Assembly: GCA_008632985.1 (NCBI GenBank)
Contig: QPGO01000079.1
Location: forward strand, 310,001 to 373,519
Source: Psammoneis japonica
Lineage: Eukaryota
Length of the DNA stretch: 63,519 nt
Direction of reading: 5' to 3'
The notes under the pieces are model-generated. The model did not search any database, was not told the DNA's origin, and worked only from the letters and a program-made list of their open reading frames with translations. A program made the position numbers and the translations under genes. This document shows positions 10,350 to 44,890 of the stretch, in pieces; the stretch's first letter is position 1, and each line of letters begins with the position of its first letter.

Positions 10350-12200
10350 ATATCCTTTCAAGGCACTGCAACCCAAAGCAATCAGCGTGTTGTCCCAAGC
10401 ACTTGTCAGATGATCTTCTCCTGCCTGACAGGTGATGCTGCCGTAGCTAGCTAGTGGCACAACTGCCGGCACAGTGGTGTGGTGCCACTGTAAGATGTTG
10501 AAGAAATGACAACTGCACTGGCAAGTCTGCCAGCAGCTCCAGCACTGATCACCCTTTGGAGGGGCCTTTCTTTGCTCCTGCTGTGCCCACCACTTGTCAG
10601 ACAAGAAGAAAGCTGGCAAGCTGAGGTGCACAGGCACACGCAACATGGCATGCAACAACAAGAAGTGAAGCCAGTTCATGAGTGCCACTGGCTGGTGGGT
10701 TGTGCTGGCCCACCACAGGGTTTGGCCAAGAAGCCAAAAAGGGGTTGTTTGGCCCCTTGAGACGTGTGCATTTCTCCCCGCCCATGACCAACGCCACCTC
10801 TCTGTCTGCTCTTAGAAAGAAGTTGCAAAAAGAAACATCTCAATCACCTTGGGAAGTTGCAATGCCAGATCCTGTCTCTCCAGTGCAAAGTTGAGCAGGG
10901 TGAGCAGTTTTCTTCACAGCAAAAGCAATGGAAATCATCTGTTGACACTTGAATCATCTCCAACCTTCTCCTCTTTGGCTCTCTCTTTCACCACAAACAC
11001 ACCACATCTCATCATTGTGGCAGGGTGCACATGATGGCAAGATTGGCTGGAGTGACAACAGTGACAAAGCCACTTTGATGGAGTGAGTCAGTTCTTGTTG
11101 TGAGGTGTTTGAATTGAAGAGCTGTTTTGGCGTGTGCTTGGTGTGACTCTGCAAGTGGTGTCATCTTCTGTGGGCTGCTGGTTTTGTCTTTCCATTGTTC
11201 TTGAGTGCAGGCAACACTGTCCTCTCTGAACATCTCTCCACAGAGCTGTGCAGTGTGTGCCCAAGCTGACCTTGTGAAATGCACCACACAAACCAAGCAA
11301 AATTTTCCATTCCCAGCAGCATGAGTGTCAAGTGCCATTGTTTGCACCACATGGCCAGCCCAATGTCATTTGTCCAGACTCAGTGTGTTGTCACTTTCTC
11401 TGGAGTCAATGGCAGATGTCCCTTGCCACTGTGTCCACATGTTGTGCTGTGGTCAACCCAAGCTTGCAACGTCACTGCCCAGGTGCAACTCTGAAGCAGC
11501 TCTCTCCTCCAATGCCATTCTGTCAAAAAGTTGCTGATCCATCAGCAGCAGGTGTTGCAGCTCTGTTGCAAACTCACAGTTGCCAATGACAGTGCTGTTG
11601 TTGTGTTTGCTCAATCTGATCAAAGAAAAGCCTGGTGTGAACCTCATTCTTTACATTGAAGTGCTCACATCAGGAGGGGAAGCATCAATCCAATCTTTGC
11701 AAAGCAATCACTTCCTCGCAAATCATGGGGCCCCACACTCTCTTCCTCAAGAAATCATTCAGCCATCTTGACATCAGTTTTGGTCCTTGACACTGGCAGA
11801 TGTTTGCTTGGCAAGGTGCAAAGAGGGCCAATGCCATTCACTGTGACTCAGTTGTTTGGACTCAGCTCCTCCCACTGCAAAAACAGAGTGTGCCACCAGA
11901 GACCCACAACCATCTCTTCAGAGGGATTTTTTTCAGAGAGAATCTGTCTCTTTCATCTCAACCAATGGAGCTGTCTCCTCAACAGACCTTTCAATTTGCC
12001 CTGACATGCATCCTGGTGTGTGGACTCTGGCTGAACTCTTTGGTGTGTAACACATTGTTTGTGGACTCTCAGAACTCTTGGGGCAGACCTCCAATCATCT
12101 TGGAGCATTGCAAATTGGCCTTCTTTGATCCCAATGATGGGATGCACTGTCTGAAAACAGGTCTTTCATCACTTGATGGGACTTCCCGACTGAAAGATGC
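10350..12200. other. TpG/CpA-rich hypermutated block 1
   Basis: Near absence of TpA and strong CpG loss; ORFs rich in C/H/Q and almost free of Tyr. Boundaries approximate. Confidence 0.85.
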
Positions 12201-12375
12201 AAGACTGTTATGCAAGAAGACCACCGAGATCATGACTGCCCCCGAATTGACTCGTGCCATTATTGTCCGTGACCCAGAAGAACGATTTTTATTAGCCCAT
12301 CTGGACAAGGGCTTCAACGAGGGGTTCCTGAAAAAAGAAGTCTATTACAGATGGCACACTTACGATCACTCGTAA
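12070..12375 (+). pseudogene. Relic of a carbohydrate sulfotransferase-like gene
   Basis: WGRPPIILEHCKLAFF and EIMTAPELTRAIIVRDPEERFLLAHLDKG resemble the PIV.E.YKL.FF and FVRDP.ERFLSA(Y/F)LDK (3'-PAPS-binding) segments of this family; the intervening 5'-PAPS segment is missing. Confidence 0.6.
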
Positions 12376-12441
12376 AAGTTGAGACTTCTGTGTGTCAAAA
12401 ATGCCGACTCTACGTTTACCAGTCAAATTATGATTATTATG

Positions 12442-14142
12442 TCATGACGAGTCTGGAGGCATGGTTTTGAAATTGAGAAGTTCTGTCTCCATCGCCGTGA
12501 CACTTCTCGGTATTGAGCTCTGTGAACCTTCTTTGGATTCTTTTCGTACAAGCGTTGACCTTGGCCGTACAAGATCAAAGGAAGCGTTGGGACTCGCTTC
12601 CGACGATCCAATATTGCCACCCATTGACAAGTCCGGTTTTGGATGTTGCCGCATTCGACCGTCGCGACCCCAAATGTCTTGTGATCTGCCAAACTCGGCA
12701 AAGGTTGCATTCTCTACGGTACCTCGTCGAGCATTGTCACTTGCGTGTGGTCGACCAAAGGATTTGATGGATTGAATCTTGGCTCCCGGTTGGACTCGAG
12801 CCTTTTTTCCCGCAGGCAAGTTGGTGCTGTCCTTTTTTGGAACTTCCCACGCGTGATTCCACGTGACGGATCGGTGTTTGCGTGCCCCTGATATGGGATT
12901 CACGTCACCGCCGGAAGGCGCGGAGTGTGATTTGTTTTGAAGCACTTCATTGAGTCGAAGCGCCGACGATCGTGCTTTTCGTAAACCGGCATCTTCGTTT
13001 GGAGTAGTGGATAGATTGGCTGACAATTTCAAGACACTGGAAAATTTTGACAAGGGTGGTGGTGGCGCTTCTGCTTCCTTCAGTGTCGTGTCTTCCGTTT
13101 CAGTGTCGTTGTCCTCTTTTGCTGCTTGTGGCGTTGTCGAGTGTTCAACCAACTGAACGGCAAGCATGCGAGCTTCCTTTACCAGAGAGTCCAACAATGG
13201 GTCAGTATTCAGTCGAACGTCCACTTTTGTAAGGCCAAATGATTTTGATTTACTGCCACCGTTTCTAACGAGGTTACCTGTCGAAATAGTACGAGGTCGC
13301 GGAGTTGACATAAGGATATTAACGTACAGTTTGCCCAACATATAGCCAAGAAACATGCAATACACACCTGAAATTGTTCCGGCAGCCCCAAAAGTGACAG
13401 TTTCATCGATGCGATCCTTCAATGACACACGTATTACCGCTTCAAACAAGAGTGGCAGCACAACATTATACTCTGTCGGTTCTAACCGAGCACTGTTTGG
13501 TAAGGGAAGCGTCGAAAAGGACGTTGACACTCCCTTGATTTCAAATCTGAGAGAAAGCATATTGAGGACCTGGGATCGGACCGTCTTGTTCCCAGTCGAC
13601 AAGGAACGTTTTAGCAAAAGCACGGTCCATTCTTTTGTCCTTGAATCTAGTAGCGATTTCAATGCGTCACTAATGTTTTGTGCAATGGTACCCGGTGCGT
13701 TGACGAGAGTTGTCCGAGTCCAAGAAACGGGTTTTGCGAGATTTTTGGCTGCAGACTTCTGCTCTATTGATATGGATCCCTGCGGTAAGACCGACGCTTG
13801 CATTGGAGGTATGGGCGGTTCGTCAGGAGCTTGTTGTTTGCTGCCTGTTTCGCCCAAGCGAGGGAGAGGATCGCTGTTGCCGCTGCCGTTGTCGGCTGCG
13901 CCAGCGTTGATGTCGAGGGACGGTATGGTACATAAAACATCGTCATCACTTGTGGCAGTCAAAGATATACTCTGAGCAAACTCTTCTGCTGTAGCTTGTT
14001 GTCTGCTTTTCCCCGCAGTAGCAACACCAAGATCCGCGCCTAGCAACGACGCAAACTGGTCAACCACTGATTCCTGAAGAGCGGCGTCGCTGTCCCCAAA
14101 TTTTTGCTTCCCAACTGAAATTTCCCCAGATTTCATCTTCAT
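12442..14142 (-). CDS. Hypothetical protein (~536 aa after splicing)
   Basis: Long ORF of normal composition with a probable in-frame 90-nt intron 13278-13367 (CAG|GTGTGT...TCGACAG|G). No recognised domain. Confidence 0.7.
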   Translation of the reverse strand: MKMKSGEISVGKQKFGDSDAALQESVVDQFASLLGADLGVATAGKSRQQATAEEFAQSISLTATSDDDVLCTIPSLDINAGAADNGSGNSDPLPRLGETGSKQQAPDEPPIPPMQASVLPQGSISIEQKSAAKNLAKPVSWTRTTLVNAPGTIAQNISDALKSLLDSRTKEWTVLLLKRSLSTGNKTVRSQVLNMLSLRFEIKGVSTSFSTLPLPNSARLEPTEYNVVLPLLFEAVIRVSLKDRIDETVTFGAAGTISGVYCMFLGYMLGKLYVNILMSTPRPRTISTGNLVRNGGSKSKSFGLTKVDVRLNTDPLLDSLVKEARMLAVQLVEHSTTPQAAKEDNDTETEDTTLKEAEAPPPPLSKFSSVLKLSANLSTTPNEDAGLRKARSSALRLNEVLQNKSHSAPSGGDVNPISGARKHRSVTWNHAWEVPKKDSTNLPAGKKARVQPGAKIQSIKSFGRPHASDNARRGTVENATFAEFGRSQDIWGRDGRMRQHPKPDLSMGGNIGSSEASPNASFDLVRPRSTLVRKESKEGSQSSIPRSVTAMETELLNFKTMPPDSS

Positions 14143-14399
14143 GCGGTTCTAAAACATAAAAGAAGACTCCTCTTTGCTCAATTGGCAGCAGTGACGATGC
14201 CTGAGCATGAACTGCGAATCTACTCTGAACTCAACTGCGCACCAACCCCGGGAGAAGCGAAGTCCATGCCGTCTTGTGCAGTCTTGTGTGCTTCATTTTT
14301 TCGTCCAGCCGGTGTCGCGTGTCCGTCCGGCGCTGCTGCTCAATAAATGTGTGACCGTGCGCTACGTCAGTCTTGCGTCAATTCATCCCGCCCACTAAT

Positions 14400-16541
14400 G
14401 CGATGCATGAAGCACACGCCAACGCGTTGTTGGCCCCATTTGGTCGTGCGAAATTCCATCCCGACTGTCGACGATGCACACGCATGGCAATTCTTAGCTA
14501 TCCATGCAAAGGACAAGGACAACAGCGCTGGGGCAAAGCTGCAGTGGCCCTTGGCCACGTCCAAAGTGCTTGCTCGTTTTTGTTCTTTCTCCGGCTGGAG
14601 CAAGGTTGCAAATCCTTGCCTCTTGACATCGTGGCAACCACGCGGGGCAATGCCTCTCCCTGCTTGGGATGTCTGGGGGGGGGGGGGGGCAAAGAGGGCT
14701 GAGACACTGTTTTTGTGATGCCCCTGGTCAGAGCCACTCTCTTTTTGGGCTCTGGGCAGAGTGGCTGAACTCTGATGCAGCACACGCCCATCAATTTTTC
14801 TGTGCCAAGCACCAAGGAGGAGGCAGCTGCAGAAAGAAGAGTGTTCTGGCACCCAACAAAAAAAAGGCACTCTCATTGGAGGCTGTGTTTTGCAAAGCCT
14901 GCTTTGTTGCTCAGTTTGTTGAGACATTGTGTTGACAAAGTCTGTTGTGTTTTTGCTGCCAACCACTGGAAGCAGAGTGTTGATTGGTGCCATCAACAGC
15001 TAGACCAACATGTCAAACAATCAGCACCCAGCAGCTTGTGAACAAGGTTGGTTGCCTGCACATCTGCACAAGTGCAAGTTGCTCTGACAACAAGCAGGGG
15101 CTTGCTTTGGCTTTGTGCTTGATGCCCACATGCCAGAAAAGATCTCATCAGAGTGCTGTGGGTGTTTGAACATTCAGAGCTCATGAGACAGAGCTGGTGC
15201 TTGAGAAAAGTCCAACAGAAACTGCCTCATCAATGGGGCTGTTGTGGCTTGAAGCAGCGGGCATGCCCAAAGCTTGCAATTTTTTGTGTGAATGAGCATG
15301 ACATTCCTCACTCTCCTTGCTTTGATTCCTGAAGGGCAAAGTGGGAGAACAGCTGCAGCTGCAATTTGGAGAGTTGCTTCTCACTCCAAGCTGCCCACCC
15401 AGCTGCTTTGAGAATTGGGTGCTTTTTGTGCTGGCCAGCCCACTCTCATCAAAAGAGTGCATTGCAGTGTTCCTTAGAACTGGACCAAATGCTGTCTTGT
15501 TTTGTGTCAAGGCAGCACAAAATGCACAAGAAAAATCTGCATTTGGTTTTTGCATTTAAACCCAAAGTCAATGTGGAAAGACCATCTTTGCCTCAGGCTT
15601 TCCCCATCTTCTGCACAGCAGTGCACCTGCATGCAGGAACTTTGACAAAAGAGCATCAAGTCAATTGAGCACATTTTTTTGCAAGTGACACTCAGCTTTG
15701 GTCAGAAAGCTGAGCAAGATCTTGCAATGCACAGCATGCTGCTGGCCATCAGCAAGGGAAGTTGGTGACATTGTCTCATGGGGTGCCCAAAGCAGCAGCA
15801 CAACTCCTTTTCTCATTGTTCATGGTCCACAAGGAGGCCAATCAACGCTGACATCTGTCTGGAACAACAGAGAGAATCTTGAGAGCAGCAGTCTTGTCAG
15901 TGCTTGACCCTGGCACCAACCTTGCATCACATTGTCGCAGCCACAAAAAGACTCTTCAACACAGCTGCAAGGTGACAGACTGCACGCACAGAGGGCAAAT
16001 GCTGGAAAGCATCCCCACCAATGCAGAGAGACAATTTTGAAGGGCAAAAGGGAAGCAAAAAGAGGCATCATGGCTCCAGTTGTCCTCTCTGCAAAAAACT
16101 TGTGTGTTGCACAAAAAGTTGCTCTGACCAAGCAGCAGTGCACCATTGTCAAAATGCCAAAACAACAATGTTGCACCTGCATCTTGACACAACTCCAGAG
16201 AGAACCAGAAATTGCCTGCACAACCACAGCAGAAAAATGGCTCCACCAGAGAACTGCTGCTGGAGCCAAGAGAGGAGATGTGTTGCAACAGTTTGTTCAC
16301 TGCAGCAGAGGGCTGATCAACACAAGCCATGTCATCAGACATGCCCATGCTGATGTTGTCTTCAAAAGGAGCAAGCAAAGGGAAAACAGCTGAAGAAACC
16401 TCTGACATGATGCCATTGAGTTGAGACACAAGAGAAGACATCTTTTCATTGTTGGGATCTTCGCATCATTGTCAGAACAGGAAGAACCACATTTCTCTTA
16501 GCCAAAGAGTCGCCGGACATTTTTTTCCAAACTGTTGTTGC

Positions 16542-16572
<31 letters not shown>

Positions 16573-19500
16573 GCTTCTTTCTTCATTAGCAACATGAGTG
16601 TTGCCTCCTTCTTTGTCAACAACATGCAACCCAGATGCAACACAACTCCGCTCAATGTGCCTTGCAAGAAGGATGTGAGGACAAGAAGAGCAAATGACTC
16701 TGCACCACTGGCAGCAATGCATTGTCAGGAAAGGAGAATGGGAGAAGCACAACAGTTGTCAGCAAAGTGAATGATGAACAGAACAGTGACATCATTGTCA
16801 ATTTTAGGGTGACAAACATGCTTCTGGCATGCAGGGGTGATGCGTTGGTTGCATGGAGTCGTGGCCAATGGAAGTCATGCAACAAGAAAAGATTGAACCA
16901 CAAAATGGTGTCCTGTCTGGCAACGTAAATCAAGTTGCAAAGTGAAAGTGAGGCTGCAAAATGGCTGTGTCTTGAGATGTTTTTTGACGACTGCAAAACA
17001 GTTGATGTCTCTTCTGAAGTTGAAGAGATCATGGTGCACAAACCACAAATGCAAGCAAACACAAAAACTCAGTTTCTCCCAAAACAAGAGTTTTCTGCAA
17101 ACAAAAACAAGAATGGCTTGAAACATTTGGGGTGCCAGGAACAAAAGTTTTGGCAGATTCCAAAAGTTTNNNNNNNNNNNNNNNNNNNNNNNNNNNNNNN
17201 NNNNNNNNNNNNNNNNNNNNNNNNNNNNNNNNNNNNNNNNNNNNNNNNNNNNNNNNNNNNNNNNNNNNNNNNNNNNNNNNNNNNNNNNNNNNNNNNNNNN
17301 NNNNNNNNNNNNNNNNNNNNNNNNNNNNNNNNNNNNNNNNNNNNNNNNNNNNNNNNNNNNNNNNNNNNNNNNNNNNNNNNNNNNNNNNNNNNNNNNAAAT
17401 GTTTGGTTGCTGCAAAGCACTGAGGCAGTGTTGGCTGCTCAAGTTGAGGTGTGTGCAAAGCATGAAATGGCCATTGCACTCCAAAAAATGAGGGTTTGGG
17501 TCCATGTGTGCTTTTGATGGACTGACCACCACTTGTTGTGTGTGGATTTCACAGAGCTGGCTCACAGAACTGCTGATGGCTGCCATGCCAACATCATTTT
17601 GTGGAGCTGCCATGTGCAGCCTGTTGTGAAGCACAAAAACACAAGCCAGTTCTTGAGTTGATGGATGGCTGCATTGTGGCACAAGTTGCAAAGTCAGAAT
17701 GACCCAGCAGATGAAGAATGAGGTGATGGTGGTGGGAGCTCCAAACAACAAATGGCCTCCAAACCTCAGCTGCTGGCACATGGAATTGGTTGGATCTTCC
17801 AATCAAAAAGGGGAGTTTTCCAGCCAAGAGCAGCAGATGGAGCACATGTCATTTGTGTCGTGTGTGTGCATCAAGCACAGCTCACACATTGAATGCAGAG
17901 TGGCGCCTCAGGGGCTGCCTTTTTGTCATCTCAAGTCACATCACATGTCTTTGACTGGCAACCATCCGATGTGACAATTTTTGAATTTTCTCAAACAAAG
18001 CAAAGCAAAGCCTGCTCTTCACTCATCTCATGCATGTCCTGGAGTCATCCTTGAAAATGTGGATAAAAGGGGGAAATGGCTTGCTTCCAGCTTGTTCCCT
18101 TGGAGCTGTGAGATGGTGCAGTGCTCTGCGGTCAATGCACCAAGATCCATCTCTTCATCACAGCGCCAGTTGTTCTCCACAATCAAGCCACAGATCTTTC
18201 ACCACCCACAACAGACTTGAAGGACAGGAGCTGTCTTTGCCAACAACAGAAAATGAGCCACCAGCAGGGACAAAAGGCCAAGAGGGGGCAAAGAAATGGA
18301 GAGACAGGCTCTTTTGGAAGATGTGCAGCAGCTCTCACACTTGGGCTCACTCTTCAGGTGTGCATCAGTCTCACTGGATTTGGCACCTTTGGTGGCCATT
18401 GTTGTGACACACTTGCAGCATTGTTGCTTGATGTGCAACAATGAGCAAGTGGCACTCAGCCGTGAAACAAAGACCAGTTCACAAAAAGTGGCAAAGGTCA
18501 CATTTTTCTGTAAATTCATTTTTGCATTGCCACAACACCACACTCTCCCATGCTGTCATTCATTGCAACACACAAGGAAGGCAATCTGTTTGATGTGCAA
18601 GGCCGACCCCCATCTGAGCCATCTTTTTGGCCACTCCAGTTGGAAACACCTCAGATGTTTGGAAGAACTGAGTTGCTTCTGAAGCATGCCAAGTGGTGCT
18701 GCTCACATTGAGCAGCATGAGCCTGACTCAACAGCAACAGAGCTGCAAGATTGTTCAGGCTGACACTGCCTCCAGTCTTCATCCCTGAGTTGAGGCATGC
18801 ACCAGTGCAGCAGAGCACACAATGAAATGGGCTGCAGTGTGGTGTGCAAGATGTGCAAGTGTGCTTGCATCCCACAGCGGGCACTTTCACAAAGTGGCCA
18901 TCCCTTGCAGCCAGTGCCAAGTCAAACCCAAGCAGCAGCAAGTGATGGCACTCAAAGCAAAAAACAGAGTGCCCACCACAAGCACTGTGACAATGAAGTC
19001 AAGCAAGCACTCCAACCATGACAATGCAACCAACACAAGAATTTTGCAGATTTGAAAGCTGCCCAGAGGAGCAAAAAACTTCATCTTTCAGGCAGGCATG
19101 GCCTTGCTCCTTTGTCATGAGTTTTCACCTCCCCAGTGCCCCTTGTGGTGGCCCCTTTCACAGTGCTGCAGAGCTGTCAGTTGCTCATCATGTCCATGTT
19201 CACCTGGCCAGTGGACATGCCAAGCCAGCTGGTGACATTTGTGGAAGATGGTCAAATTGAATCTCATCTCCTGACCTTCTGCTGCAGCTGCACACTGTGG
19301 AAGCTGCCGATTGCAACTTCTTTGGATGTCAAATCATGGCCATTGTGTTCCAATCATCACCATTCCTGCCATGGTGCTGAGCAACATCCACCTGGGTGCA
19401 ATTGTTGGTCTTGCAACTTTCAGCCACTGCATGGCAAGCAAAAGTGCAGAAGATGGTGGTTCTGACCGCATGCATTGATGGCAAATGCATGCCAAGCCAT

Positions 19501-19600
19501 GGCAACTTCCCAAAATTTGACTGGCAGGACAGGCGTTGCTGCATTTTGAATGAAGACAAACGCATTTGGTGCATGGAAGACTTGTGAATTCTGCAATGAT
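14400..19600. other. Hypermutated block 2 (unidentified relics; assembly gap 17170-17396)
   Basis: TpA nearly absent apart from YTAR, CpG rare. No confident protein family recognised. Confidence 0.85.
16533..16573. repeat. (TTG/CAA)n microsatellite
   Basis: About 13 units with one interruption. Confidence 0.9.
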
Positions 19601-19621
19601 TGCTGAGAAACTCAAAGTATT

Positions 19622-20188: not shown

Positions 20189-20197
20189 CGTGAATCG

Positions 20198-22670: not shown

Positions 22671-22703
<33 letters not shown>

Positions 22704-23550: not shown

Positions 23551-23654
23551 TAAATCAGTTAAAAACTAAAATGTGTTGTTGTTAATAAACCTTATGGGTT
23601 GTCTATCAATACAACTCTTGTTTTTCAGCACAACAGCCATTTACACACATTCTA

Positions 23655-32659: not shown

Positions 32660-32990
32660 ATCTACGTTATAATTAGGCAATTGGACAAGCAACACCAACA
32701 GCGAAAATGATGACAGCGTGGGAAGTTGACAGTCAATGGCGTTGTGGTCTTGAGTCTCTTTTTTTACTGGCTAGCTAATAGAGAGGGTAGTGAGGGTGAG
32801 GGTGATGAGTGTAAAGCAAGGAGCGGCAGGCACATACCAAAAGCACAACTTGAGCACGAGCATTCATTTCGCAAGTGCATGAAAGAGCTCGTATCGTACA
32901 TGCATGAAAAAAAACGTGCCGTCTGTCATGGTCCGCATCCCGGAAGCATGTGGGATTTGAATTTTGGAACATTGCGATTGTTGTGAGCGA

Positions 32991-35900
32991 TGTCACGAAT
33001 TTTTTACTCTCCAAAACCTCAAAACCACCATGACGACCAAAGAAAGCAGCCATGACAATCTGTGGCTCACCCAGATCAAGCAAGGCATCCACAACAAGGT
33101 CGGAAGAGACAGCGTGCGGGGCGAAGACATCTGGGGGGGAACTTGCAGAGGGAGTGCAGTGCGCACCATTGCGTGGGATGAAATGCTTGTGTTCACAATC
33201 ACACATTGCTGCATGTGCAAATCAGGTCACAGTTGTGGATGTGTGCAAAAGGACAGATCAACCAGCACACAGATTTGGTTGGATGTCTCGAAAACTGCAA
33301 ATGCGATCGACCGACGATGTCGACACATGAGGTGTCAGCGCTGATCACATCCGGACAATCTGCTGTCACAATCAGATGCTCCAAATGACCTTTGCTTTGC
33401 AAACATGGTGCAAATGCTTTGGACCATTGAGAGCTCCTTCAGAGAAACTCCAAATGGCAGAACAAAGTCCAATCTCGCAATTTTTGTTTTTCGTGAGATT
33501 CGCTCTGCTTTTGCCTGCACTTGTTCTTTGAGCACAGTGCATTGTGCACACACACCACAGAAAGCAAAGAGACAAAAGTGAAGCTTTTGTCTCATGCAAC
33601 CAATGGCAAGTCTTCTGTCAAGCAGGAGACAATCACACCTGCACCGCTGGAGCCGATCTCCGAGCCAAATGTGCTCAAACCAAGCCAGCAGCACCTCAAG
33701 ATGGTGCAGTGTTTTCACCCTGGAGACAAGAAGAGCCACACCCACACAATCAATGTTGAGCACTGCAACAAGCAGGGAGTTCCCATGTGCATCAAATTCC
33801 TCAACAGTCAGACAGAGTGTCCAACAGGAGCAGGCTGATGAGTTTCTTGCAGCATGATGCTTGCGTTGTTGCGTGGAGATGCTCTCCAAGTTTTTGAGAA
33901 TGAGGTGGCAAATGTTGGCTCCAAACAGGACAAAGGAGCCTTCAGAAAATGTGAGCATCACCTCGCCAATCATGCATTCCCAAAGAATGCACTCCAAAAT
34001 CAGAGGCAGTGTCTGCAACGTGAAGCCAGACTCTGTGAAGATTCGAGAAATCACTGTGTGGACCCAGCAAGTGAACAAAGACTTCAAGTGCCACCCTCTC
34101 TTTGAGACAAACCAGAATCTGGATGACAATGAGCTCAAAGACAGCATTTGCAACCTTGCGCCTTGCTGCCAGCACAGCCAGTCCACTCTTCAAGGTTTCA
34201 ATGTTCTCAACCACACTTTTGATGAGTTGGCGGAGCTTTTGGAGCATCTGGAGGTCACAGAGGGCACATTTGACCAGATCCATGTCAAGGGTGACACTGA
34301 CAAAGCCAACAATTGATGAAACCATTGTAAAAGCACTGTCCATGATTCATCAAAAGACTGGCAAAGGAATGCAGCAAGACTGGCAACATTCAAATGGCGC
34401 ACAGTTGCACAGGGTCTTGTTGCAACACAAACAATGCCTCTAAAAAAGAAGAGTTGAACACCATGGTTGCTCAAGCAACTCACAAAACCCTCAATGCAAG
34501 TTCCCTGACAAAAGACAAGAGAAATGCAAAGCCAAAGATTCAGGCTCTTGACACCCTCAGTCAGGGCAGAAACTGTCAATTTGAAATGATGACTCACAGT
34601 GATTCTGAGGAATGGCTGGCACCCATCAAGGAATCATGTGCATCGCTGGCTGGAAAAGGCTGGAGTGATTCATGCTGGTGCAGCAGTCATTGCTCACATG
34701 AACACTTCCTTGGGGAAAGAGAAAAATGAGCCTCTGCAAGTTGTTCTTTGCAGCGAAACATTGTCAAGCACAATTTTGCACAAATTCACATGGAAATTGA
34801 GAACCACAGAGAATGTGCCACCAAAACTCATAAAAGCAAGGGAGGGTTTTTTACAATTGACAGCAAATGCAAAATGCAGCTCTCATTGCCTGAATTTGAC
34901 AAGCACAAGCTGATCAAGAAAGATGGCATGCATGGAGAGCACCCCTTCTTTTTCTTGTGGATGAGACATGATCATGGGGCATGACTTCCTGAGCAGTCTT
35001 TGAATTGTGCTCAACTTTGCAAATGAGGAAATTAAATGGGAAGATGCAACTGCACCAACAAAAAATGTTGATGCATTTTTTGATGCCGAGGTCCTCAGGC
35101 TGGCTGACTGCCAATCACATTGAGGAATCTTGCGCCACAAATGGTCTCAATGACAGGGTCAACAGCATCCTTGATGCTGACTGTCATGCTGCTGAACTGC
35201 CTCCTGATGAGATTTGAAAACATTTTCAATGGCAACCCAGGTGTGTGGACAGCGAAGCCAATCAATCTTGCGTTGAAGTTGGGTGCAGAGTCCTGCACCA
35301 GAAACCAATTCCTGTTCCACAGGCCTTGAAGGCAACTGCTTGAAAGGAAGCTAGAAGACTCTGCAAGACAGAAGTCTTGAGAAGAACAAATCACTCTGAA
35401 TGTGCAGCTCCAACCTTTGTCCAAATTGGAAACTGGCGCATGCTCTGCCCAACATTCAAGACATGCTTCAGAAGCCCAAGGGCTTCATGCATGCAACGTC
35501 ACTTGATTTGAACATGGGACATTGTTGCATTGAGTGGACATCATGTGCACATTGTGTGTGTTGCATGATTGTGATGCTGCGGGGCAAGTGTGAGTGCTGC
35601 AGACATCCAGTGGGAATCGGCGGAGCTCCAGATGTTTTCCAAGAGCACACAGGCAAATGCATGTTGACAACATGCCATGCCTGACAAAAGGTGACTTCAA
35701 AGATCACCTCCATCAGCTCAAAACAGCACTCACATGGCTCAAACAAGCCAGTTTAAAGGTCAATGCCAAACAGCCCTTTTTTGCAAAGTCTGAAGTGGGC
35801 TCTCTGGGATTCCACATTTTAAAGGTGCTCAACCAACTCTCAAGAAAGTGGAGGCAATTAAATTGACCACAGCTCCTGGGACTCATGAGGGGAATTGCAG

Positions 35901-36230
35901 TGTTTCATTGGTGTGGTTGACTGCTGTCAAGACATGTGGCCTCCATGGTCTCACTTGCTTGCTCCTTTGGCCAAACTTTCCTCATGTGAGGTCAAGTGGC
36001 AATGGGTGAGCACGGAACAAAAAGCCTTCCAAAATGCAAAGCAAGCAATGTTGACAGATGTGTTGTTGTCACACCCGAATTTCAACGAACCCTTTGAGAT
36101 GTGTGCAGATGCAAGCAGTTCTCAATTGGGTGTGGTTGTCTCACAGCACAACTGACCTGTTGCCTTCTGCAGAGCCGAGAGCCAAATGAAGCACAGATGC
36201 CACATGGCAAGCCGTGTGCAGAAACCCTTG
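32991..36230 (+). mobile_element. Degenerate Ty3/Gypsy LTR retrotransposon (gag, protease, RT, RNase H; integrase not seen)
   Basis: Relic motifs FPKNALQNQRQCL (gag), DMIMGHDFL (protease), LPNIQDMLQKPKGFMHATSLDLNMGHCCI, GKCECCRHPVGIGGAPDVFQ, FIGVVDCCQDMWPPWSHLLAPL, LLSHPNFNEPFEMCADASSSQLG. Possible 5' LTR TG..CA at 32991-33405 followed by TGG (PBS-like), less certain. Confidence 0.85.
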
Positions 36231-36689
36231 ACCACAGGCAGACTCAGCACTTTTAAAAATTGGCTCACTTTTTTGCAGTCTGTGACATTGGCATGATGTG
36301 GCAAAACATTCACCACTGCAACAAAAAAACAGAAGGCATTTGCAGCTTCTGCGATGATGTTCAGAGTCGATTGGAGTGGGTTGGTGTGGTGCTTTTGCTG
36401 CTGCCAATGGTTCACAACCATGCTGTCAGTTGGCAAGTGCAAAACCTTCTTGTTTCACCTTCTCCTCTTTTTTGACACGTGTGTTTTTTTCTGCCTTTTG
36501 TGTTTGATCAGTGGGCAAGAATCACCAACAGCAAACAAATTGACAGTGTGGGAAGTTGACTGTCAATCCACAATGGCATTGTGGCCTTGAGTCTCTCAGT
36601 GAGGGTGTGCCAAACATCTTCCACCAAAAAGTGGAAACACATGCACATGCAGACAAATGCAAAAAAAAGAACTTCATTGCAACACTCAA

Positions 36690-39100
36690 CACCTCCAAAT
36701 TAAATTCAATTCAATCTTAAATTTTACACAGCCCTTGCCAACTGCTGCCCATGCTGAGCTTTTGACAATGCCTGACATGCCATTCAATCCACAACTGTGG
36801 ACAGGGTCAGAGCGTGTGTGCAACGCAAAACAAGTGCAACAATTCTGCATTTGCAGTTGCAGGTGGAAACACTGCACAGCCGACAGTCCCCAAGAATTCT
36901 CCATCGGTCTAGCGAACCATCTTGCTGCATGGTGGTTGGAAGTGGGATGGCTGCAATGTTGCCCGAACTCTTCTTCGATGCAACCATCCAAGATGCCATG
37001 AGTTTGCAGTGAGTTCTCCACCAAATTGTTGACACACATGCGGTGTCTCCACATGTCCCATGCTGCATTCCACAGCTGGGCTGTCAAGCCGGAGACCCAT
37101 CGCAGTCCAGTGTTGCGGCAGTCCAAATGCTTGCAGTGTTGCTTTGGGCATGCACCCACTCAATCACCAGGATTCCTTGAGCAAATGAACTTTCTCCCAC
37201 TGTCTGTTGTGCAGTGAAGGCTGCTGCCACGTGGCTGCATTCTGTCCTGGGTGGCACCTGGGGAGCATTGTCATGCCATGATGTCAACATGCTTGCGATT
37301 CCCACTTTTGTGTGAGGATGAGCAAATTGCTTGGTGAGCCATTCTTTGACACTGTCAAGTTTTTTGGTTTGCAACTCCTGGGCCCCAAAGGATCTGCATC
37401 TCAGTGCATGATCTGTGCCCATCTCAGGTTCTTGGCATCGTGGACACACCTGGCCCTCAATTTGCCCCAGCGGTGCAGATTTTTTAGATGGAACAAAGCC
37501 GGTGGACCACTTGGATTGCCACAAGCGGCGGAAGGCAGGGCATTGTTGCGCGGCCTTGCCCAGTGCAGTCCAGTTGATTTCTGCATGTGTGGGCTCAGAC
37601 TGCAGTTTCTTGGCCCAATGTTTGGCAGCTGGTGGTCCGCACATGTGGTGAAGTGGTGTTGATTTGTCCCACTGTGTCATGGGCTTGCCTGACAAAGTGA
37701 TGCACCACATCTCACATGCCACGTCAAAGTGAGCAAAGGATGGCAAACCAGTTTATGCTTCCCAGTGCACTTTTGCCAGGAGATCCATTTCAACACTAAA
37801 AACTTCCAGGTGACTCAGCTGACTGAGGTCCACTTCGTGGTCTTGTTGACCCTCTTTGTGCCTGAACGATGACAATTGGAGTGTCCTGGATCATCCTTCT
37901 GATGGGGTGCATCAGGTCACAATTGGTCTGAGTTGGGTTGTTGCAGTTGTTGTAAAAACAGGTGCAAAGCACGAGATCACAATCACACCTGAGAATTGTT
38001 TGTCCACAAGTGACACTGTGTTTCAGGCACAGTTGGGAGAGTTTTCAGAGCACTCCGCACATTCCTTCCAACTCTCCTCTGCAAGCACTCTGATTGCTCT
38101 CTCTTCCCCGAGTGTGGCTCACTCCAGGGCATTGGTGTGAGTCGCCTTCTGATGGCACCAGAGTGTCATTGCTGCTGTTGCAGTTGTTCCTTTGAACGAT
38201 CCGTTGGTGATGCTCATGGTCGTTCCTGACAAGATTCCTGCGACCAACAGTGCATCCTCAAGTTGTCATTTGTGTGGCAGAGGTGGGGCCATTCAGCTGG
38301 AGGGTTCCTTGTCTCAATGTCAACTGGGGCGCATCCTGCGGTGGCAATTTTTGGTCCATGTTGCATCACCTTGGTTGGCATGGAATCTGGGCGACAGTTG
38401 CTTTCATGACCATTGAAATGACAGAGTTGTGAGCAGACCTCTGTCTGCTCTTTTGTCTTCCTGTGGATCCTTTCATCCTCCTTTGAGCAACACCATGGTG
38501 ATGGTGGGTGCTGCTGCCACACGCCCAGCTTCCTTCGCAGCAGCAAGTGTTGGTTCCGGCCGGGTGACAGACAGCACATGGTTGGTGCCTCTTGTCAAAG
38601 CCTTCAGCATGAGGCAGAGGGGCATCCTGCGTCTGGCCACTCAAAGTCCGTGCCGCATGGCTGTTCCCCATTCCAATGTTGTGGCAATGTGCTTGTTCTG
38701 TCGCCACTTGAGATGTTGGAGACAAGTGCTGTGTTGAGCCACATCCTGCACAGATTGATCTTGCGCAATCTTTTGCCTTTGCATCTAAAGTCGACAAACA
38801 TGTTCATCAAGAAAGTGTCGCTCATTCTGTTTTGTTGCGGAGTGAGGTGGGCAATTGCAAATCAACATTGCATCCCCAGCAAAAACTCCACAGGGACTTA
38901 ATCCATGTTTTTGTCACCAGGATGCCAAATTTGTTGCAGTCAACCATGAAGAGCTGTTTCTGTGAGCCGGCCTCCAAAGTTGTCATCTCTCAAACAAGAA
39001 GCATTTCCTTCTCTGTCATGGAGGTGGAGTCAATCTGTTGAAGGAAGGTTTCCAATTTCAAGATGCCTTGCAAGACATGTGGCTTGGTGATGCCTGGCAG
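36690..39100 (-). mobile_element. Degenerate non-LTR retrotransposon (LINE, Ambal-like) 3' portion
   Basis: Relic motifs FGILVTKTWIKSLWSF, KINLCRMWLNTALVSNISSGD, FRHKEGQQD...MDLLAKVHW (RNase H-like), INWTALGKA...WQSKWSTGF, CPRCQEPEMGTDHALRC (CCHC), LWNAAWDMWRHR. Confidence 0.75.
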
Positions 39101-42100
39101 TGTTCTCCGTGAAATTGATGATGCCTTTGCAACTTTGGAAATTCACTCCTTTTCACACATGAACAAACAAAGACACTCTCAATTCCTCTGCGTTTGACCA
39201 CATGCAAGGCATTTGTGGTGTGCAGCCCCCAGGCATGCAAAAAAAGGAACTGAAAGGGGCTCCAAGAAAGCTCACCAACTTGCCAGGCCCCCGGGCATGC
39301 AAAAAAAGAAACTGAAAGGGGCTTCAAGAAAGCTTGCCAACTTGCCAGGGGCTGAGGCAGCCAACCTGACAGGAGCCTCTGAAAAATTCATTGTTGGCAA
39401 GTCTTGTCCTGGCAAAAGGTGGCACAGCTGGAAGAGAAGCTGGAAAAGACACAACGATGCCATTCTGGCATGTCTGCTGGTGCTGTGGCACCCAATGTGA
39501 AGTCTCTGTTTGGTGCTGCCATCCTGTCCTTTGTGCGCCAATTGCAGAATCACAAAGATGAATCCAAGAAATGCATTGAGGCAGTGTTGGAGAAACTGCC
39601 ATCTGCCACAACACCAATTCTCTGGTGTCTTGCACAAACTGAGTGGTTTTTTGTTGTTGTTTTGTCAACCAGCAAGAGAGCTTGCGCATGTGCTTTGCAA
39701 GAAATTGCACGCAGCAGTGTGGACAGTCTTGATGTGCATTTGGGCAGTCTCAAAAGGGGTTTGTGTGATGTTCTGGAAGAGATTGAGAAAATTGCTGGCA
39801 GGGGGAGTTTGCACAAAATTCTGGAACAGACCAAGAAAATTGCAGGAAAAGAAAGCACAGAAAGTGCGGAGGAGGGGGGCATTGAAGAAGAACACAAACA
39901 CCAAGCATGGCAAATGACCCTGCTGCTGCCTTGGTTGGTTGATCCACAGGCTCAAATTCAAGAAAGGGTCACCTGGGGTTTGATTTGCATCGCACCTTTG
40001 TTTGTGCGTGTGTTCACCAGAAGAGCTGCTGCATGTGGTGATCTTGCACTGTTGCTCTGTGTGAAACTCAACAACCATTGGAAGAATGGCTTTGAGAGGT
40101 TGACATTTGGTTTGTCATTTTCATGTGTTGATTTTGTCTGGCTGCACGAATTTTTTGTCTGGACAAACTGGAGCTGTGTTTCGAGATCCAAGTTGACTGG
40201 GTCACCATGCCATTCACAGGTTTGTGCACACAACAACTTCAAGGTTGTAAATCCCTGCCAAAGTGACACCACAGTCATCAAAAGTGCAGCTGCAATGTTG
40301 ATTCAGTGGCAAGTTTGTGTTCAAAATTTTTTTCACAAAAGCTCGCATCGCACCCCCACTTTGTGCATGCGGTGTGGGGCTGGTGAAAATCCCTAGAAAA
40401 AAAAAGAGTGTGATTGATGCATGCTCTGGTGCACACCATGAGACTCCTCACTGCAACCTGCATCTGCTGCAGAGATTAAAAATTGAGGCGTGCAAATGTG
40501 GCATTGTCTGCCTTGATCCATCTCCCAACAATGGACAGATGGGGAGCAAACCTTGTCACGTCATGTTCTGGTGCACCCGACAAAAGAGGGGCTGAAGGCA
40601 GATTGGCATTGGCTCCACTTCATTCTCCCAACCTGACCCTCTTGGGTGACAACCATGACAAATGCACAACAGCAACACAATGAATGACAAAAAATGAGCA
40701 CAATGAAAAATGTGCACAATTCATTGGCAAATGAGGCTTTTTTTGTTGTTGCAATCATTGCACACAAACTTTTGTGCATGATCACAAAACTGAGTTCCCA
40801 ATGATTTGAAAGTTTCACCTTCTTTGACACCAAGATGTTTGAAAACACACCACCTGTTTTTAAAAAACAATTTTTGTTTCATGAGCTGGCTGCAAAAGAT
40901 GGTTGTGTGACATTGACAGTGTTGGGCTCAATCTTGAGCTCTCCAGCTTGCATTCTGGAGTCTGCCCTTTGGCTTCCTGCACACTCAGATTTGCAAAGTG
41001 CTTGCTCCTCAGCACTGCTGTTGCAGGAGAGGATTTCAGCGGGGGTGCAGAGGGAGCCATTGGCGCGTGCGCAACAGGATGTTGATGGGACAAGGTCACA
41101 CCATGACATGCCAAGCCAGACAAGGATGCTGCACAAAGCCTCAAATGTGGCCATGGTGCACTCTCACAACTGGCTGACAGTCAACTCAATCATTCCTTTT
41201 CTTTTGCCAGCAAAGGGGGGAAGAGTGAGAGCTGGGGAGAGGGCAGTGTGGCTGTTGGCTGTGCACAAAGAGTGCTCTGTGATGAGTGGCACATTTTTTT
41301 GCACTTGGAGTGGCTCTTCAATGAGGGTGGTCTCTGTGAAAAGAGACTGAGTTTTGTTGGTTGGTTTGTGCCAATCTGGGTTTTGCAGATGCATGCCAAA
41401 AAAAGCTGGTTGTTGCTCCCTTGAAGTTGGAGCAGCAAGAGCTGACCTCCAGCTGGGCACAAATGTGTGCAGATGAGGAGAGCTTGGTTTCTGGTGCCAC
41501 CAGGGCTGACGTTTGTGGCAGATGGGTCCATGGCAGGCAGACAGATGTCAGTGTCAAGCATGTTGTTGCATGAGTGCAGCTTTGTCAAAGAAGCTGCTGC
41601 TGGTGCATCATGCATGTGCCTGCTGCCATGCTCCTGGCCAGTGCAGCATTGTTTGTGCCCTTGCTGTTTTGGCCAACATGCACAACAAGAGTGGTGCAAT
41701 GCTGGGGGCAAGCCAGCAGCAACAAGTCAAGTGCAGCAATTTTCTGAGTTTTGCTTGTGCCATGATGGCTGGTGTGGGTCCATGCATTGGTTGCCAACAA
41801 GCTGTGATGCTTGGCTTGCAAGGTGCTTGTGCTGTCATCATGAGCGGCACAAAATGGGCAGCTCATCAAGGTGCTTTTGACCTTTGGGAGTCTTTTGGCC
41901 TGCTGTTGGCATTGGAGGCAATGTGGCAAGCCTTCCAGCTGCCCCCTGTTTCTTGTTGCAGGGTTGTTGAAGCTGGGGCATGCGTTGACCACACTGGCCT
42001 TTGCTTGTCTTTTTGTGTGTGCTCTCAGGCTGGCCAACATGTGGCGAGTGGTGCCCTCTCTGTCCATGACAACCAAGTTGAGTGGGAGGGCTCCACTTTG

Positions 42101-42455
42101 AGTGAAACAGAGAGAGCAAGCAGTGTCAGCTGTCATCACAAGAGAGGCCATGGAGAGCTTTGATCTTGGCAAGATGTGCCTTGGGCACATGCTGAGAAAT
42201 GAGAGCAGGTGTTGTCCAGGCAGTGTGGGCAGCAGACAAGACCCAAGCTGTTGAGAACACAGCCTGCACACACCATTGGCTCATGTGTGCAGCCAGCATT
42301 TGCAGCACCAATGAGCACCGTCTTGTTGCAGCAAGCTCTCTTCCTCAGCACAAACAAAAACATGCAAGTGTGTCTCTTTGTGGCACACAGGTGCACAGAA
42401 ACAACAACAACAACACCAACACCAACATCAGCACATTGGCAAGAAATCATAAAAA

Positions 42456-44890
42456 AGATGTGCTCTCTCTGTGTGTGGTGGCAGCTGCTGCATGCCTTGC
42501 CAAGAGCCCTGCATGGTTGGCCTGCTTCCTCTGTGTGTGAAGACAGAGTGGCAAAATGTGCTCTTGGGTCCCCAATTGAGGGGGGTCATTTGCTGCTTTT
42601 TCAGCTCAAATTTGACCAAACAGCTTGTGACTTGCATGACTTTTCCTGAGTTTCACTGCGCTTTGCTGTGGTGCAAAACATCAAGCCACATTCTGTGTTG
42701 GAGGTGGCTGTTCACCAACTCTCCATTGCTTTGTGCTTGTTCTTGTGCATGTCAAAGGTTGAAAAACACCAAATGTTTGTGGCGCCATGGGCCACCACTG
42801 CATTGATGATTGCTGTCATTTTGTCGTGCTTCGATCATGGTGCATGATGCCCTCATTTTAGTGCATGGCCTAAAATTCCTTCCAAGATGATGATGTTGTG
42901 AGCTTGAGCTGATGAAACCCCCTTCCCTTTGATGCACCCCTCCTCAGTTTGCACCTGATGTTTCCCTTTTTGTGCTTGTAGCTTGTGACGAACACTGTTG
43001 GCTTTAAAAGAGAGTGACAAAACTTTGGAGTCTTTGAATTTTGTTGAACATTCAGGGATGTTTGAGACAAAGATCCAGGCATCACATTGCACTGTTGTTC
43101 TTTGCTGGCTTGCACTGAAATGCCCAGACATCCACACAATCTGGCAAGGGTCATGTGCAGCATGCCTCGCCACTGGACAACACGGTGAGACCGTGCACAA
43201 GCCTCTTGTGCGTGGCAACGCAGCATTGTCAAACACGCACCTGGGAAGCACGACCACAGGAGGGCATGGCTCTGGGTCTTGGGCAATTCCAGAAGGATGC
43301 TAAGAGAGCATCCGTGTGAAGCACACCAGCCCATCGTCTGGCCCACGATGGCAGCGTGATTCCACACGATGACATCACTCGTGCATGGCGCGTGATGGCT
43401 TGATTCGCACGATCCACAATGTGAATGCACGATCGATTTGATGCAATCCAAATGCGAACGAATGGGGATTTGGCAAGATTCCCCATTCGCACGATCCCAC
43501 TTTCTCCACTCTAAACTAGCTCACAATTTTCACAACAACAAAGTCACAACACATCTTCACTTCACACACAAACATCACGGCAACGACGCTGCGACATCGG
43601 CAATGGACGCACACAACAACAGCAGCAGACTGGGAGGTTGTGATGCACCAAGACAACAACTGATGTGACAAGAAATGAGATGACAATGATCGAGTTGTTT
43701 TGGGAGCTGGTTGAGCCATTGGTGACGAAGGGTTTTTGGCACGTACAACTTGGTGCTGAAATCACGCAGAGGTTTTGGCCGCAGTGGGACTGTTGTTTTT
43801 CACTTTTTTTGGGGTGCATTTTGTGTTTTCTCGGTCGATCGCATTGATGAAGCACTGAAGTGAGCACGCGACAACAGATTTTGATGAAAAGTTGGATTTT
43901 CATTCATTGTGGAGGATCAGCACGGGGTTTTTAACACGGTGAAGCACGGGGGGACGATTTTTTCACCAGATTTGCAAGATCCTGCATCCCATCCAATTCG
44001 CACGCGCAATGTCAGTGGATTGATGTATTTTTTGTACGCAAGAAGCACAATGACGTCGACACACCCGACATGATGGACTTCCCGTGCTGTTGTCGTAATG
44101 AAGTGAAATCTTGTTGTGTTCGGTGCGTGGAGTCTAGCACCATTTGTCTGCATGTGGACGAGCACTGCGCACCGCAATTTTGGAAAGTGCGCCACTCCAC
44201 AGGGATTTGGCAAGATTCCCTGTTCGCATGATCCCACTTTCTCTGCTCTGAACTAGCTCATAATTTTCACAACAACAAAGTCGTAACACATCTTCTTTTC
44301 AGTGCCTAGCACATGCATGGGGCACATGCTTCCCATCTTCAACTTGCACTTTTGACTCTTTTTTGATCAAAAATCAACACAAAAAACCAAAACAATTCAT
44401 CACTGGCATGAGACAATGAAGTTTTGCAAGAACCTCCAGCGGGTGGTTGGTGCATCAGATCCAGAATGGGTGCTGCATTGGACCAACTGCAAGATGCTCA
44501 AGGCAAGTGGATTGATTGTCAAATCAACATGAAACAACGATGCTTTCAACTTGGCTGCAACTTCACATCATTCTCTTCATCCGCGCTCCCACACCAAGAC
44601 TTGTTTTGATTTTCACTCCAGAGTTTTCTGGATTCCCTTTCATTGTTTAAAGTTGTGATGCATTTGTTTCCATTGACATTGAGCGACGTCATTGTCCTGT
44701 TCAAGATCTTGATTTTGATTGGCTCAAAGATGTTTTTGAATGAAACGATGTGTGAATCTTGCGTCATTGTGTCCAAATGAGCTGGAGTTCAGAATCTTTG
44801 TTTTTGTCAATTTGTTTTGCTTCCCCAAAAAATGACGTGTGCGCATCTTGAACTTGCTCAATGACACCCTCTGGTGCCTTCAGATTTGTG
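42456..44890 (+). pseudogene. Hypermutated duplicate of the SPX gene upstream region, exon 1 and intron 1, interrupted by an insertion
   Basis: Colinear with 57885-59345. Exon 1 copy 44416-44502 reads MKFCKNLQRVVGASDPEWVLHWTNCKMLK with the donor changed to GCAAGT. Confidence 0.9.
43156..44324. mobile_element. 1169-bp non-coding insertion with TG...CA ends and an apparent 4-bp target-site duplication
   Basis: Absent from the parental copy (GGTCATACTTCC at ~58721). Flanked by CATG at 43152-43155 and 44325-44328. Ends TGCAGCATGC / TGCCCCATGC (inverted, 8/10). Internal ~95-bp direct repeat at ~43466-43558 and ~44203-44295. Confidence 0.65.

Follow-up and report, generated by a model that had tools for sequence, protein, structure and literature searches.

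About half of a 63,519-nucleotide stretch of the Psammoneis japonica genome (assembly GCA_008632985.1, contig QPGO01000079.1, positions 310,001 to 373,519 of the forward strand; hereafter, the window) consists of blocks from which the dinucleotide TpA has been almost removed and CpG has been reduced, and in which TG and CA are enriched. Survival of a TA depends on the bases that flank it, and the changes fall on both strands and acted after duplication of the DNA. We regard it as probable that a transition-only, context-reading hypermutation has rewritten these blocks in place, and that they represent old repeat DNA from the nucleus of a raphid pennate diatom.

Ten TA-poor blocks, which sum to 30,434 bp, were delimited by TA density, and the remaining 33,085 bp are referred to as islands. 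The blocks contain 80 TA and the islands 1283, which places TA in the blocks at 0.07 of its island frequency (a 15-fold drop), while CA/TG is up 1.53-fold. Within the blocks, the observed/expected ratio is 0.00 to 0.11 for TA and mostly 0.03 to 0.4 for CG, and TG+CA stand at about twice the expectation, whereas the islands have ordinary dinucleotide frequencies. Base composition is unchanged, and G+C is uniform along the window at about 0.48 (0.487 in blocks versus 0.476 in islands). The borders of the blocks are sharp, within about 50 to 100 bp, and at several of them the loss of TA extends beyond the loss of CG. The blocks and the features that belong to them are listed below in window coordinates; a strand is assigned to the retrotransposon relic only.

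10549 to 12190: block 1, TA/CG-purged (3 TA and 8 CG in 1642 bp; TG+CA observed/expected 1.65 to 2.07)
14497 to 19725: block 2, TA/CG-purged (12 TA and 37 CG in 5229 bp; N gap 17170-17396 inside)
21301 to 23460: block 3, TA/CG-purged (4 TA and 13 CG in 2160 bp)
25188 to 26596: block 4, TA/CG-purged (1 TA and 20 CG in 1409 bp)
29166 to 30111: block 5, TA-purged with CG kept (2 TA and 29 CG in 946 bp)
32993 to 36625: block 6, TA/CG-purged, with a retrotransposon relic inside (11 TA and 49 CG in 3633 bp)
34965 to 36290, plus strand: frameshifted Ty3/gypsy-type pol relic with reverse transcriptase and RNase H (Pfam, tblastn)
36802 to 43935: block 7, the largest, TA/CG-purged (21 TA and 120 CG in 7134 bp)
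43152 to 44324: insertion of a high-copy element, TA partly purged and CG retained (contig depth, read variants)
44362 to 45745: block 8, TA/CG-purged (2 TA and 25 CG); its start, 44325-44872, is a mutated copy of 58724-59267
50987 to 52926: block 9, TA-purged (8 TA and 53 CG); first copy of a 1.8-kb tandem duplication (50851-52667)
53560 to 58516: block 10, TA/CG-purged (16 TA and 77 CG in 4957 bp); inside it, the second 1.8-kb copy (52673-54488) ends and 0.68-kb units repeat in tandem (56255-57863)
58724 to 59267: unmutated copy of 44325-44872, with normal TA and CG density, upstream of an SPX-domain open reading frame (ORF) at 59260-60369

Sequence context of the surviving TpA sites

According to the original prediction, residual TA in the blocks lies mostly in TTAA, CTAG, TTAG, and CTAA (YTAR, where Y is a pyrimidine and R a purine), and the underlying rule is a change of A to G in 5'-TAY-3' that spares YTAR. 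The description of the residue is borne out. YTAR accounts for 49 of the 80 TA in blocks (61%) versus 240 of the 1283 in islands (19%), and all 14 sites singled out in that prediction are YTAR (TTAG at 10813, 15475, 16805, and 22763; CTAG at 15001, 22459, 35352, 36910, and 40394; TTAA at 15557, 35754, 36254, and 43005; CTAA at 38786). With the islands trimmed by 150 bp (221 YTAR among 1210 TA), the odds ratio is 7.1 (Fisher test, P = 4.4e-16). The excess persists when 150 bp are cut from the block edges (40 of 64) and after removal of the second in-window repeat copies and the high-copy insertion (35 of 53); in the range 10800-43010, YTAR makes up 29 of 49 TA. Within the islands, there is no YTAR excess (observed/expected 0.94 to 1.02). 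An origin of the excess as new TA arising from the abundant TG and CA was rejected, because Y(TG/CA)R represents 22.3% of N(TG/CA)N (N, any base) in the blocks and this origin would therefore predict 22% rather than 61% YTAR (binomial test, P = 8e-14).

Counts of the NTAN tetramers reveal that the depletion is strongly context-dependent rather than uniform (chi-square = 117.8 over the 10 strand-symmetric classes, 9 df). A multiplicative model with a separate survival for each strand fits the 10 classes (deviance 4.1, 6 df) and does better than a uniform model (likelihood-ratio chi-square 82.9); its two-class version, which distinguishes only purine from pyrimidine after TA, gives a TAY/TAR rate ratio of 3.1, and the four-base version is better than this two-class one (P = 0.005). 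Per-strand survival is 0.557 for TAA, 0.386 for TAG, 0.139 for TAC, and 0.055 for TAT. TAY is lost hardest, in line with the prediction, but YTAR is not spared as a class: under the island baseline, about 78% of it is lost.

Judged from the letters around the survivors, the main determinant is one base further out than NTAN. The second base after TA is A in 65% of survivors versus 29% of island sites, with the symmetric T two places before TA. When TA sites are sorted by how many TARA half-sites they carry, counted over both strands, the classes differ in survival as follows.

TYTARA: 22 in blocks, 26 in islands, survival 0.92
YTAR with one TARA half: 21 in blocks, 107 in islands, survival 0.213
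Other YTAR: 6 in blocks, 107 in islands, survival 0.061
Non-YTAR with one TARA half: 21 in blocks, 210 in islands, survival 0.109
Remaining TA: 10 in blocks, 833 in islands, survival 0.013

Outside TYTARA, pooled survival is 0.050 with the island baseline. In a fit with five half-site classes, survival is 0.98 for TA followed by RA (profile interval of about 0.8 to 1.2), 0.27 for TA followed by RG, 0.21 for RY, 0.15 for YR, and 0.046 for YY. With three classes, the per-strand rates of loss are 0.02 to 0.39 before RA, 1.5 to 1.6 before R(not A), and 2.3 to 2.4 before Y, and these values are stable over three baselines. It is safe to state that TA followed by R-A is protected at least four- to six-fold in rate, and perhaps fully, and that the rate of loss at TAY exceeds that at other TAR by a factor of about 1.5. 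The predicted targeting of TAY thus holds as a preference, with only this modest advantage over most TAR. The half-site also explains the exceptions of the GTAAA type that had been pointed out: they are genuine (seven of the eight surviving GTAA are GTAAA) and represent survivors in which TA is followed by RA.

Direction, strand, and timing of the changes

Because only transitions occur, the classes defined by purine or pyrimidine flanks are conserved, and the pyrimidine-purine steps per class number 127.7 versus 127.4, 116.5 versus 123.7, and 114.2 versus 109.9 per kb in islands versus blocks. From islands to blocks, the class flanked by pyrimidines on both sides loses 18.8 YTAY and 22.6 YCGY per kb, and gains 30.3 YTGY and 10.8 YCAY. 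In the closed class of a pyrimidine-purine step followed by RA, the losses are 8.4 TA and 12.2 CG per kb, against gains of 14.7 CA and only 1.0 TG; in the blocks that still keep CG, the changes are −0.8 for TG and +11.7 for CA. A gain of CA without TG before R-A indicates that conversion spares the strand that reads TA before R-A and falls on its complement.

Changes whose ancestral state could be assigned were pooled from a mutated and an unmutated copy, the tandem copies, reads of the high-copy element, and codons of the pol relic. Among the 30 informative changes, 22 fit A>G before a pyrimidine, and these sequence comparisons support A>G on the strand where a pyrimidine follows TA as the direction of change. 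Alignment of the purged segment 44325-44872 with the intact 58724-59267 (79-80% identity) pairs 20 TA of the latter with 8 TG, 8 CA, 1 TA, and 3 other dinucleotides; YTAY is replaced by YTGY in four of four cases, and YTAR is changed in four of five. The same alignment contains all three of the changes cited in the original prediction (CTAC>CTGC, TTAT>TTGT, and GTAA>GCAA). Among the pooled changes, the products of RTAR are divided between CA (9) and TG (7).

The changes can also be followed in the codons of a transposon that lies within block 6. The Pfam family RT_RNaseH_2 matches the ORF at 35889-36152 (E = 2.4e-11), which is the single match above the curated cut-off among 130 block ORFs (44 of at least 120 amino acids and 86 of 87 to 118 amino acids), and a search of 1.84 billion representative proteins retrieved 3981 relatives at E <=0.001. 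Using the polyproteins P0133 (domain order RVT_1, RT_RNaseH, Integrase_H2C2, rve), P0157, and P0162 as tblastn queries, we traced a frameshifted pol of the Ty3/gypsy type over 34965-36290. Tyr occupies 11 of the aligned positions in half or more of the homologues, and none of these is still Tyr in the relic: 5 are Cys (TGY), 4 are His (CAY), 1 is Ser, and 1 is Ile. Where the Tyr codon follows a pyrimidine, it became TGY in three of three cases, and where it follows a purine, it became CAY in four and TGY in two of six. Tyr to Cys and Tyr to His are the most common replacements over 149 consensus positions, whereas control residues are kept (2 of 2 His, 4 of 4 Gln, and 3 of 4 Trp); of eight conserved Arg, two are retained as AGR, two are TGG, and two are CAR. 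The suggestion that Tyr codons are a target is therefore upheld in this relic. No Pfam family was detected in the 44 block ORFs of at least 120 amino acids, and 66 plus-strand ORF pieces from 32714-38898 yielded no further credible domain. A match of one block ORF to WHD_ORC2 (E = 0.0048) was below the cut-off and was discounted.

Comparison of the two 1.8-kb tandem copies places the changes after the duplication. The copies are 84-87% identical and differ by 195 transitions and 35 transversions, and at 42 steps one copy has TG where the other has CA. Transition divergence is 0.170 at step positions versus 0.045 elsewhere, a 3.8-fold difference. By this comparison, the rewriting acts in place, on DNA that had already been duplicated. 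It also acts on both strands: in counts per 500 bp, the blocks have no excess TG/CA strand skew (standard deviation of z, 1.38 versus 1.31 in islands), and no runs of same-strand events were detected (runs test, z = 0.14 and 0.40), which together exclude editing of a single-stranded intermediate and kataegis-like clusters. The units of about 0.68 kb that repeat in tandem at 56255-57863 are 89-91% identical, and the duplication of the segment upstream of the SPX-domain ORF also takes in 42434-43154 and 57862-58726. Self-comparison of the window in a purine/pyrimidine alphabet found no repeats beyond those found by BLAST, except for a weak match between 45300 and 57780.

The blocks differ in how far the loss has progressed. 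In blocks with about 65% of the island CG density, TA is already down to about 11%, and block composition suggests that TA is lost before CG, as exemplified by 29166-30111. The segments 29166-30111, 43001-45000, and 51001-52300 have lost TA and kept half or more of the normal CG; by their composition, they resemble an earlier phase of this process. The 1.17-kb element at 43152-44324 belongs to a family of several hundred copies with a summed contig depth of 14,000-20,000, compared to about 60 for single-copy DNA, while most block DNA is now single-copy at 90% or higher likeness in the run contigs. At 9 of the 11 variant places listed for 43767-44062, other copies of the element have TA where the window copy has CA or TG, and the TA share of depth at these nine is 0.30-0.97, exceeding half at seven.

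The element has an internal 100-nucleotide direct repeat (43465-43564 and 44202-44301, 89% identical), and we found no coding domain in it. One contig joins 43151 directly to 44325 and represents either an empty site or a paralogue. Six metagenome loci that share a 19-base word with the element were dismissed as chance matches, as they have normal composition and no further similarity. Outside the element, 29 single-letter differences separate the window from the run contigs in 40000-59999, and 14 of them are TA or CG versus TG or CA at the same step. Conversion may, on this comparison, still be segregating between haplotypes or strains.

CpG loss, proposed mechanism, and competing explanations

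CpG is lost in every context, with survival ranging from 0.149 for TCGA (lowest) to 0.589 for GCGC (highest). A per-strand order of loss by the 5' base, T>C~A>G, reproduces the mixed classes by arithmetic on the survival values. The flanks that protect TA speed the loss of CG: CG-poor cores keep 0.03 of the one-sided sites versus 0.11 of the others. We considered a flank rule shared by the two dinucleotides, under which neither yields TG before R-A, but rejected it as a full account because TYCGRA is lost. From these site counts, CpG is purged more slowly than TpA and under a different flank rule. Neither branch yields TG before R-A, but their survival rules differ, and two activities are therefore favored.

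We propose that every pyrimidine-purine step is driven toward TG or CA, TpA fast and nearly to completion and CpG more slowly. Each strand would be acted upon independently, with A>G fastest before a pyrimidine, about 1.5 times slower before R(not A), and suppressed four-fold or more, perhaps entirely, before R-A. TYTARA (TTTAAA, TCTAGA, and TTTAGA/TCTAAA) would be protected on both strands and would survive, which is why the residue looks like YTAR. As chemistry, we prefer adenine deamination at TpA in DNA, in which A would become inosine and be read as G, because both branches would then be deaminations beside a 5' T (T-A in one and T-C-G, the fastest CG context, in the other). CpG would be lost when cytosine, methylated or not, is deaminated, either by this activity or, more probably, by another. 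We infer that an enzyme directed to silent or repeated chromatin is responsible.

Several observations weigh against this reading or limit it. TYCGRA drops from 28 in islands to 2 in blocks; CpG is therefore off the TpA rule, and a single enzyme becomes doubtful. Mirror-image classes should behave alike under strand symmetry, yet the pooled polarised changes give 13 TG and 1 CA for YTAY and the divided outcome described above for RTAR, an asymmetry that could be due to chance, to wrong ancestral assignment in the copy pairs, or to a real strand effect. The copy pairs back the R-A rule only weakly (3 CA and 3 TG with RA downstream; 5 TG and 2 CA with TY upstream), with 8 cases for it and 5 against. 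The apparent immunity of TYTARA also depends on the baseline. In the islands, TYTARA occurs at 0.35 per kb inside long ORFs versus 1.77 per kb outside them, and with a baseline of island DNA outside ORFs, its survival is 0.41 (0.04 for other TA) and per-strand survival before RA is 0.68, while the other classes hold steady at 0.20-0.22 and 0.093-0.097. "Immune" may therefore be too strong a word for TYTARA. In six cases in the copy alignments, TYTARA faces TYCARA or TYTGRA in the other copy, so that some surviving TYTARA may be new TA that persists in a protected context. Only the distal copy of the segment upstream of the SPX gene is purged, and its duplicate at 58724-59267, about 14 kb away, is unmutated; duplication alone is thus no trigger, which argues against a purely duplication-triggered process. 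Finally, we assume that the blocks once had an island-like composition, and the data comprise one 63.5-kb window from one sample.

The process could attack thymine instead of adenine. In this version, a TET/JBP-type or other enzyme modifies T at TpA, the modified base mispairs with G, and the result is T>C, blocked after T-Y and favored after a purine. A>G on one strand and T>C on its complement look alike in sequence data, and this version is a serious rival. From general nucleic-acid chemistry, 5-hydroxymethyluracil (5hmU) or its oxidation products would be expected to give near-complete T>C. In dinoflagellates, a TET/JBP homologue produces 5hmU that is enriched in repeats and silences transposons (PMC11572971). 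Earlier work cited there showed that T is replaced preferentially in TA and TC (PMC11572971). However, the 5' flank order is roughly reversed between the two branches, being A>G>C>T for T at TpA and T>C~A>G for C at CpG, and one pyrimidine-directed enzyme for both is thus not favored. Overall, we consider attack on thymine to be unlikely.

A strict form of the original rule, with A>G solely in 5'-TAY-3', YTAR untouched, and the exceptions as noise, is consistent with the 61% share of YTAR in the residue, with the gain in chi-square (82.9) of the purine/pyrimidine model over a uniform one and its TAY/TAR ratio of 3.1, and with the conversion of YTAY to TG in 13 of 14 polarised cases. It conflicts with the range of YTAR survival, from 0.061 with no TARA half through 0.213 with one to 0.92 in TYTARA, with the enrichment of A at the second base after TA and the better fit of the four-base model, and with the four of five YTAR changed in the mutated/unmutated copy pair. 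The window indicates that YTAR outside TYTARA is lost nearly as often as TAY, and we find the strict rule quite improbable.

Selection or slow ordinary decay is another candidate, either as avoidance of TA and CG at the nuclease or RNA level or as methyl-CpG decay combined with a neighbor-dependent bias. The loss of CpG alone does fit methyl-CpG decay, being slower and partly incomplete in the younger blocks, and avoidance at the RNA level would look symmetric because both dinucleotides are self-complementary. Selection against TA, however, does not predict products that depend on the flanks (no TG before RA, and YTAY to TG). The TA observed/expected ratio of 0.00-0.11 extends over kilobases without an ORF signal above shuffles, the block borders are sharp, and step transitions are 3.8 times as frequent as those elsewhere although only about 40% of ancestral steps are TA or CG. 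Such an origin is accordingly very unlikely in our estimation.

Editing of RNA or cDNA before integration, by ADAR-like A>I and APOBEC-like C>U activities, would have delivered the blocks already mutated. At least one block is a retrotransposon relic, and TG would arise from both TA and CG if A>G and C>T acted on a single strand. Against this stand the equal abundance of TG and CA without excess skew, the interspersion of events on the two strands, and the divergence of the tandem copies by step conversions after duplication. The purge has also reached segment 44325-44872, which lacks transposon features and duplicates DNA from upstream of a gene. ADAR favors a 3' G, yet TAG is relatively spared here. 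We regard pre-integration editing as highly implausible.

An assembly, base-calling, or processing artefact is scarcely credible: the assembly is a scaffolded draft with N gaps, and the sequencing runs that contain the window come from one sample and possibly include its source, but contigs built separately from one of them, the public run X1 (itself possibly the source of the assembly), carry the blocks with few differing letters at a single-copy depth of about 60, the pol relic is coherent at the codon level, and the copies have diverged in an evolutionary pattern.

Neighboring genes, known systems, and significance

Long ORFs with few introns lie in the islands and encode eukaryotic domains (rhomboid, BMT5-like methyltransferase, ammonium transporter, SPX, and CorA). 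The named relatives of the ammonium transporter are from raphid pennate diatoms (Epithemia, a Bacillariaceae species, and Seminavis). A 1184-amino-acid island ORF at 908-4462 (plus strand) has DUF1280 as its sole match (E = 1.3e-10), and the island ORFs at 12442-14148 and 47377-48678 (both minus strand) have no Pfam match. Block ORFs are not longer than those in dinucleotide shuffles, with the exception of 33335-34189 (minus strand, 284 amino acids; P of about 0.01) and 39383-40396 (plus strand, 337 amino acids; P of about 0.04), neither of which has a Pfam match. These two may be relics of genes, and their frames may have stayed open because the purge makes few stop codons.

The process works like repeat-induced point mutation (RIP) but is not a member of RIP. 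Shared with RIP of ascomycetes (Neurospora; RID and DIM-2) are dense, transition-only mutation of repeats on both strands, sharp limits, destruction of coding capacity, and a dinucleotide preference. The changes made by RIP are exclusively C:G to T:A and fall mainly on CpA, so that TpA is created and G+C lowered. Here, in contrast, the process destroys TpA, its main target, A:T to G:C changes dominate (Tyr TAY codons became TGY or CAY), CA/TG rises while TA falls, and G+C remains at 0.48-0.49. RIP is confined to duplicated sequence, mutates both copies, takes place between fertilisation and meiosis, and depends on RID and DIM-2. The blocks contain repeats and a transposon relic, most of their DNA is now single-copy, and the duplicate at 58724-59267 is unmutated. 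Methyl-CpG decay could cover the CG branch, but it leaves other dinucleotides unaffected, and in the blocks the loss of TA precedes and exceeds that of CG. Retroelement editing by ADAR or APOBEC leaves strand-specific clusters, whereas the blocks show neither skew nor runs, and conversions occurred after tandem duplication.

Enzymes that convert A to inosine beside a 5' U or T include TadA, ADAT2/3, and the adenine base editors derived from TadA. The natural site of TadA is U-A-C-G, and TadA relatives are also able to deaminate C. Natural TadA and ADAT2/3 act on tRNA loops and not on chromosomal DNA. The U-A-C-G site matches the preference for T-A-pyrimidine in the blocks, and judged by sequence context the pattern would be compatible with a TadA/ADAT-like activity, although we know of no counterpart of the R-A exclusion.

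Diatoms carry DNMT4 enzymes related to fungal RID, and PMC9998398 describes their function as unknown. In Pucciniomycotina, a RIP-like TpCpG hypermutation acts on repeats (Horns et al. 2012, PMC3318451). This hypermutation partly resembles the CpG branch in directing C>T to CpG in repeats with a preference for a 5' T (compare the lowest survival, that of TCGA). It has no TpA branch; in the window, all CG contexts are lost (survival of 0.15-0.59), and the CpG process is slower and less selective. The dinoflagellate mark, 5hmU deposited on repeats by a TET/JBP homologue with a preference for TA and TC and involved in transposon silencing, is similar in acting at the DNA level, in favoring thymine in TA, in being enriched in repeats, and in occurring in the same supergroup; it is an epigenetic mark (PMC11572971), whereas here the base change is heritable. 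Full-text searches found no report of TpA- and CpG-free blocks or of RIP-like mutation in diatoms, and papers outside those searches could contain one. Among known kinds of repeat hypermutation, fungal RIP and its TpCpG variant are the closest.

We also advance, tentatively and at somewhat less than even chances, a more specific claim: that diatoms possess a genome-defence mutator without known counterpart, namely a chromatin- or repeat-directed A:T to G:C editor at TpA in duplex chromosomal DNA that reads about 6 bp, excludes TYTARA, is fastest at T-A-pyrimidine, and works alongside CpG deamination, so that both self-complementary pyrimidine-purine steps would vanish from silenced DNA. Such a natural, sequence-selective editor of adenine or thymine would be the first system of the RIP type known from any organism other than a fungus.

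For annotation, one consequence is that domain searches miss transposons in purged DNA, as only 1 of the 130 block ORFs matched a family despite a 1.3-kb pol relic, and it removes Tyr codons, TAA and TAG stops, and TA-containing signals such as TATA-type motifs. About half of the window is purged; were this true of the whole genome, it would count as a major feature that has apparently gone unreported. The survivors supply a testable recognition rule, R-A exclusion with TYTARA spared, that could be used to find and assay the enzyme, and a natural editor of adenine or thymine in DNA would be of interest to both genome-defence biology and base-editing technology. If our interpretation is true, repeat hypermutation as a genome defence is not a fungal specialty, and it can also work through A:T to G:C changes at TpA, a chemistry so far described for no natural DNA mutator.

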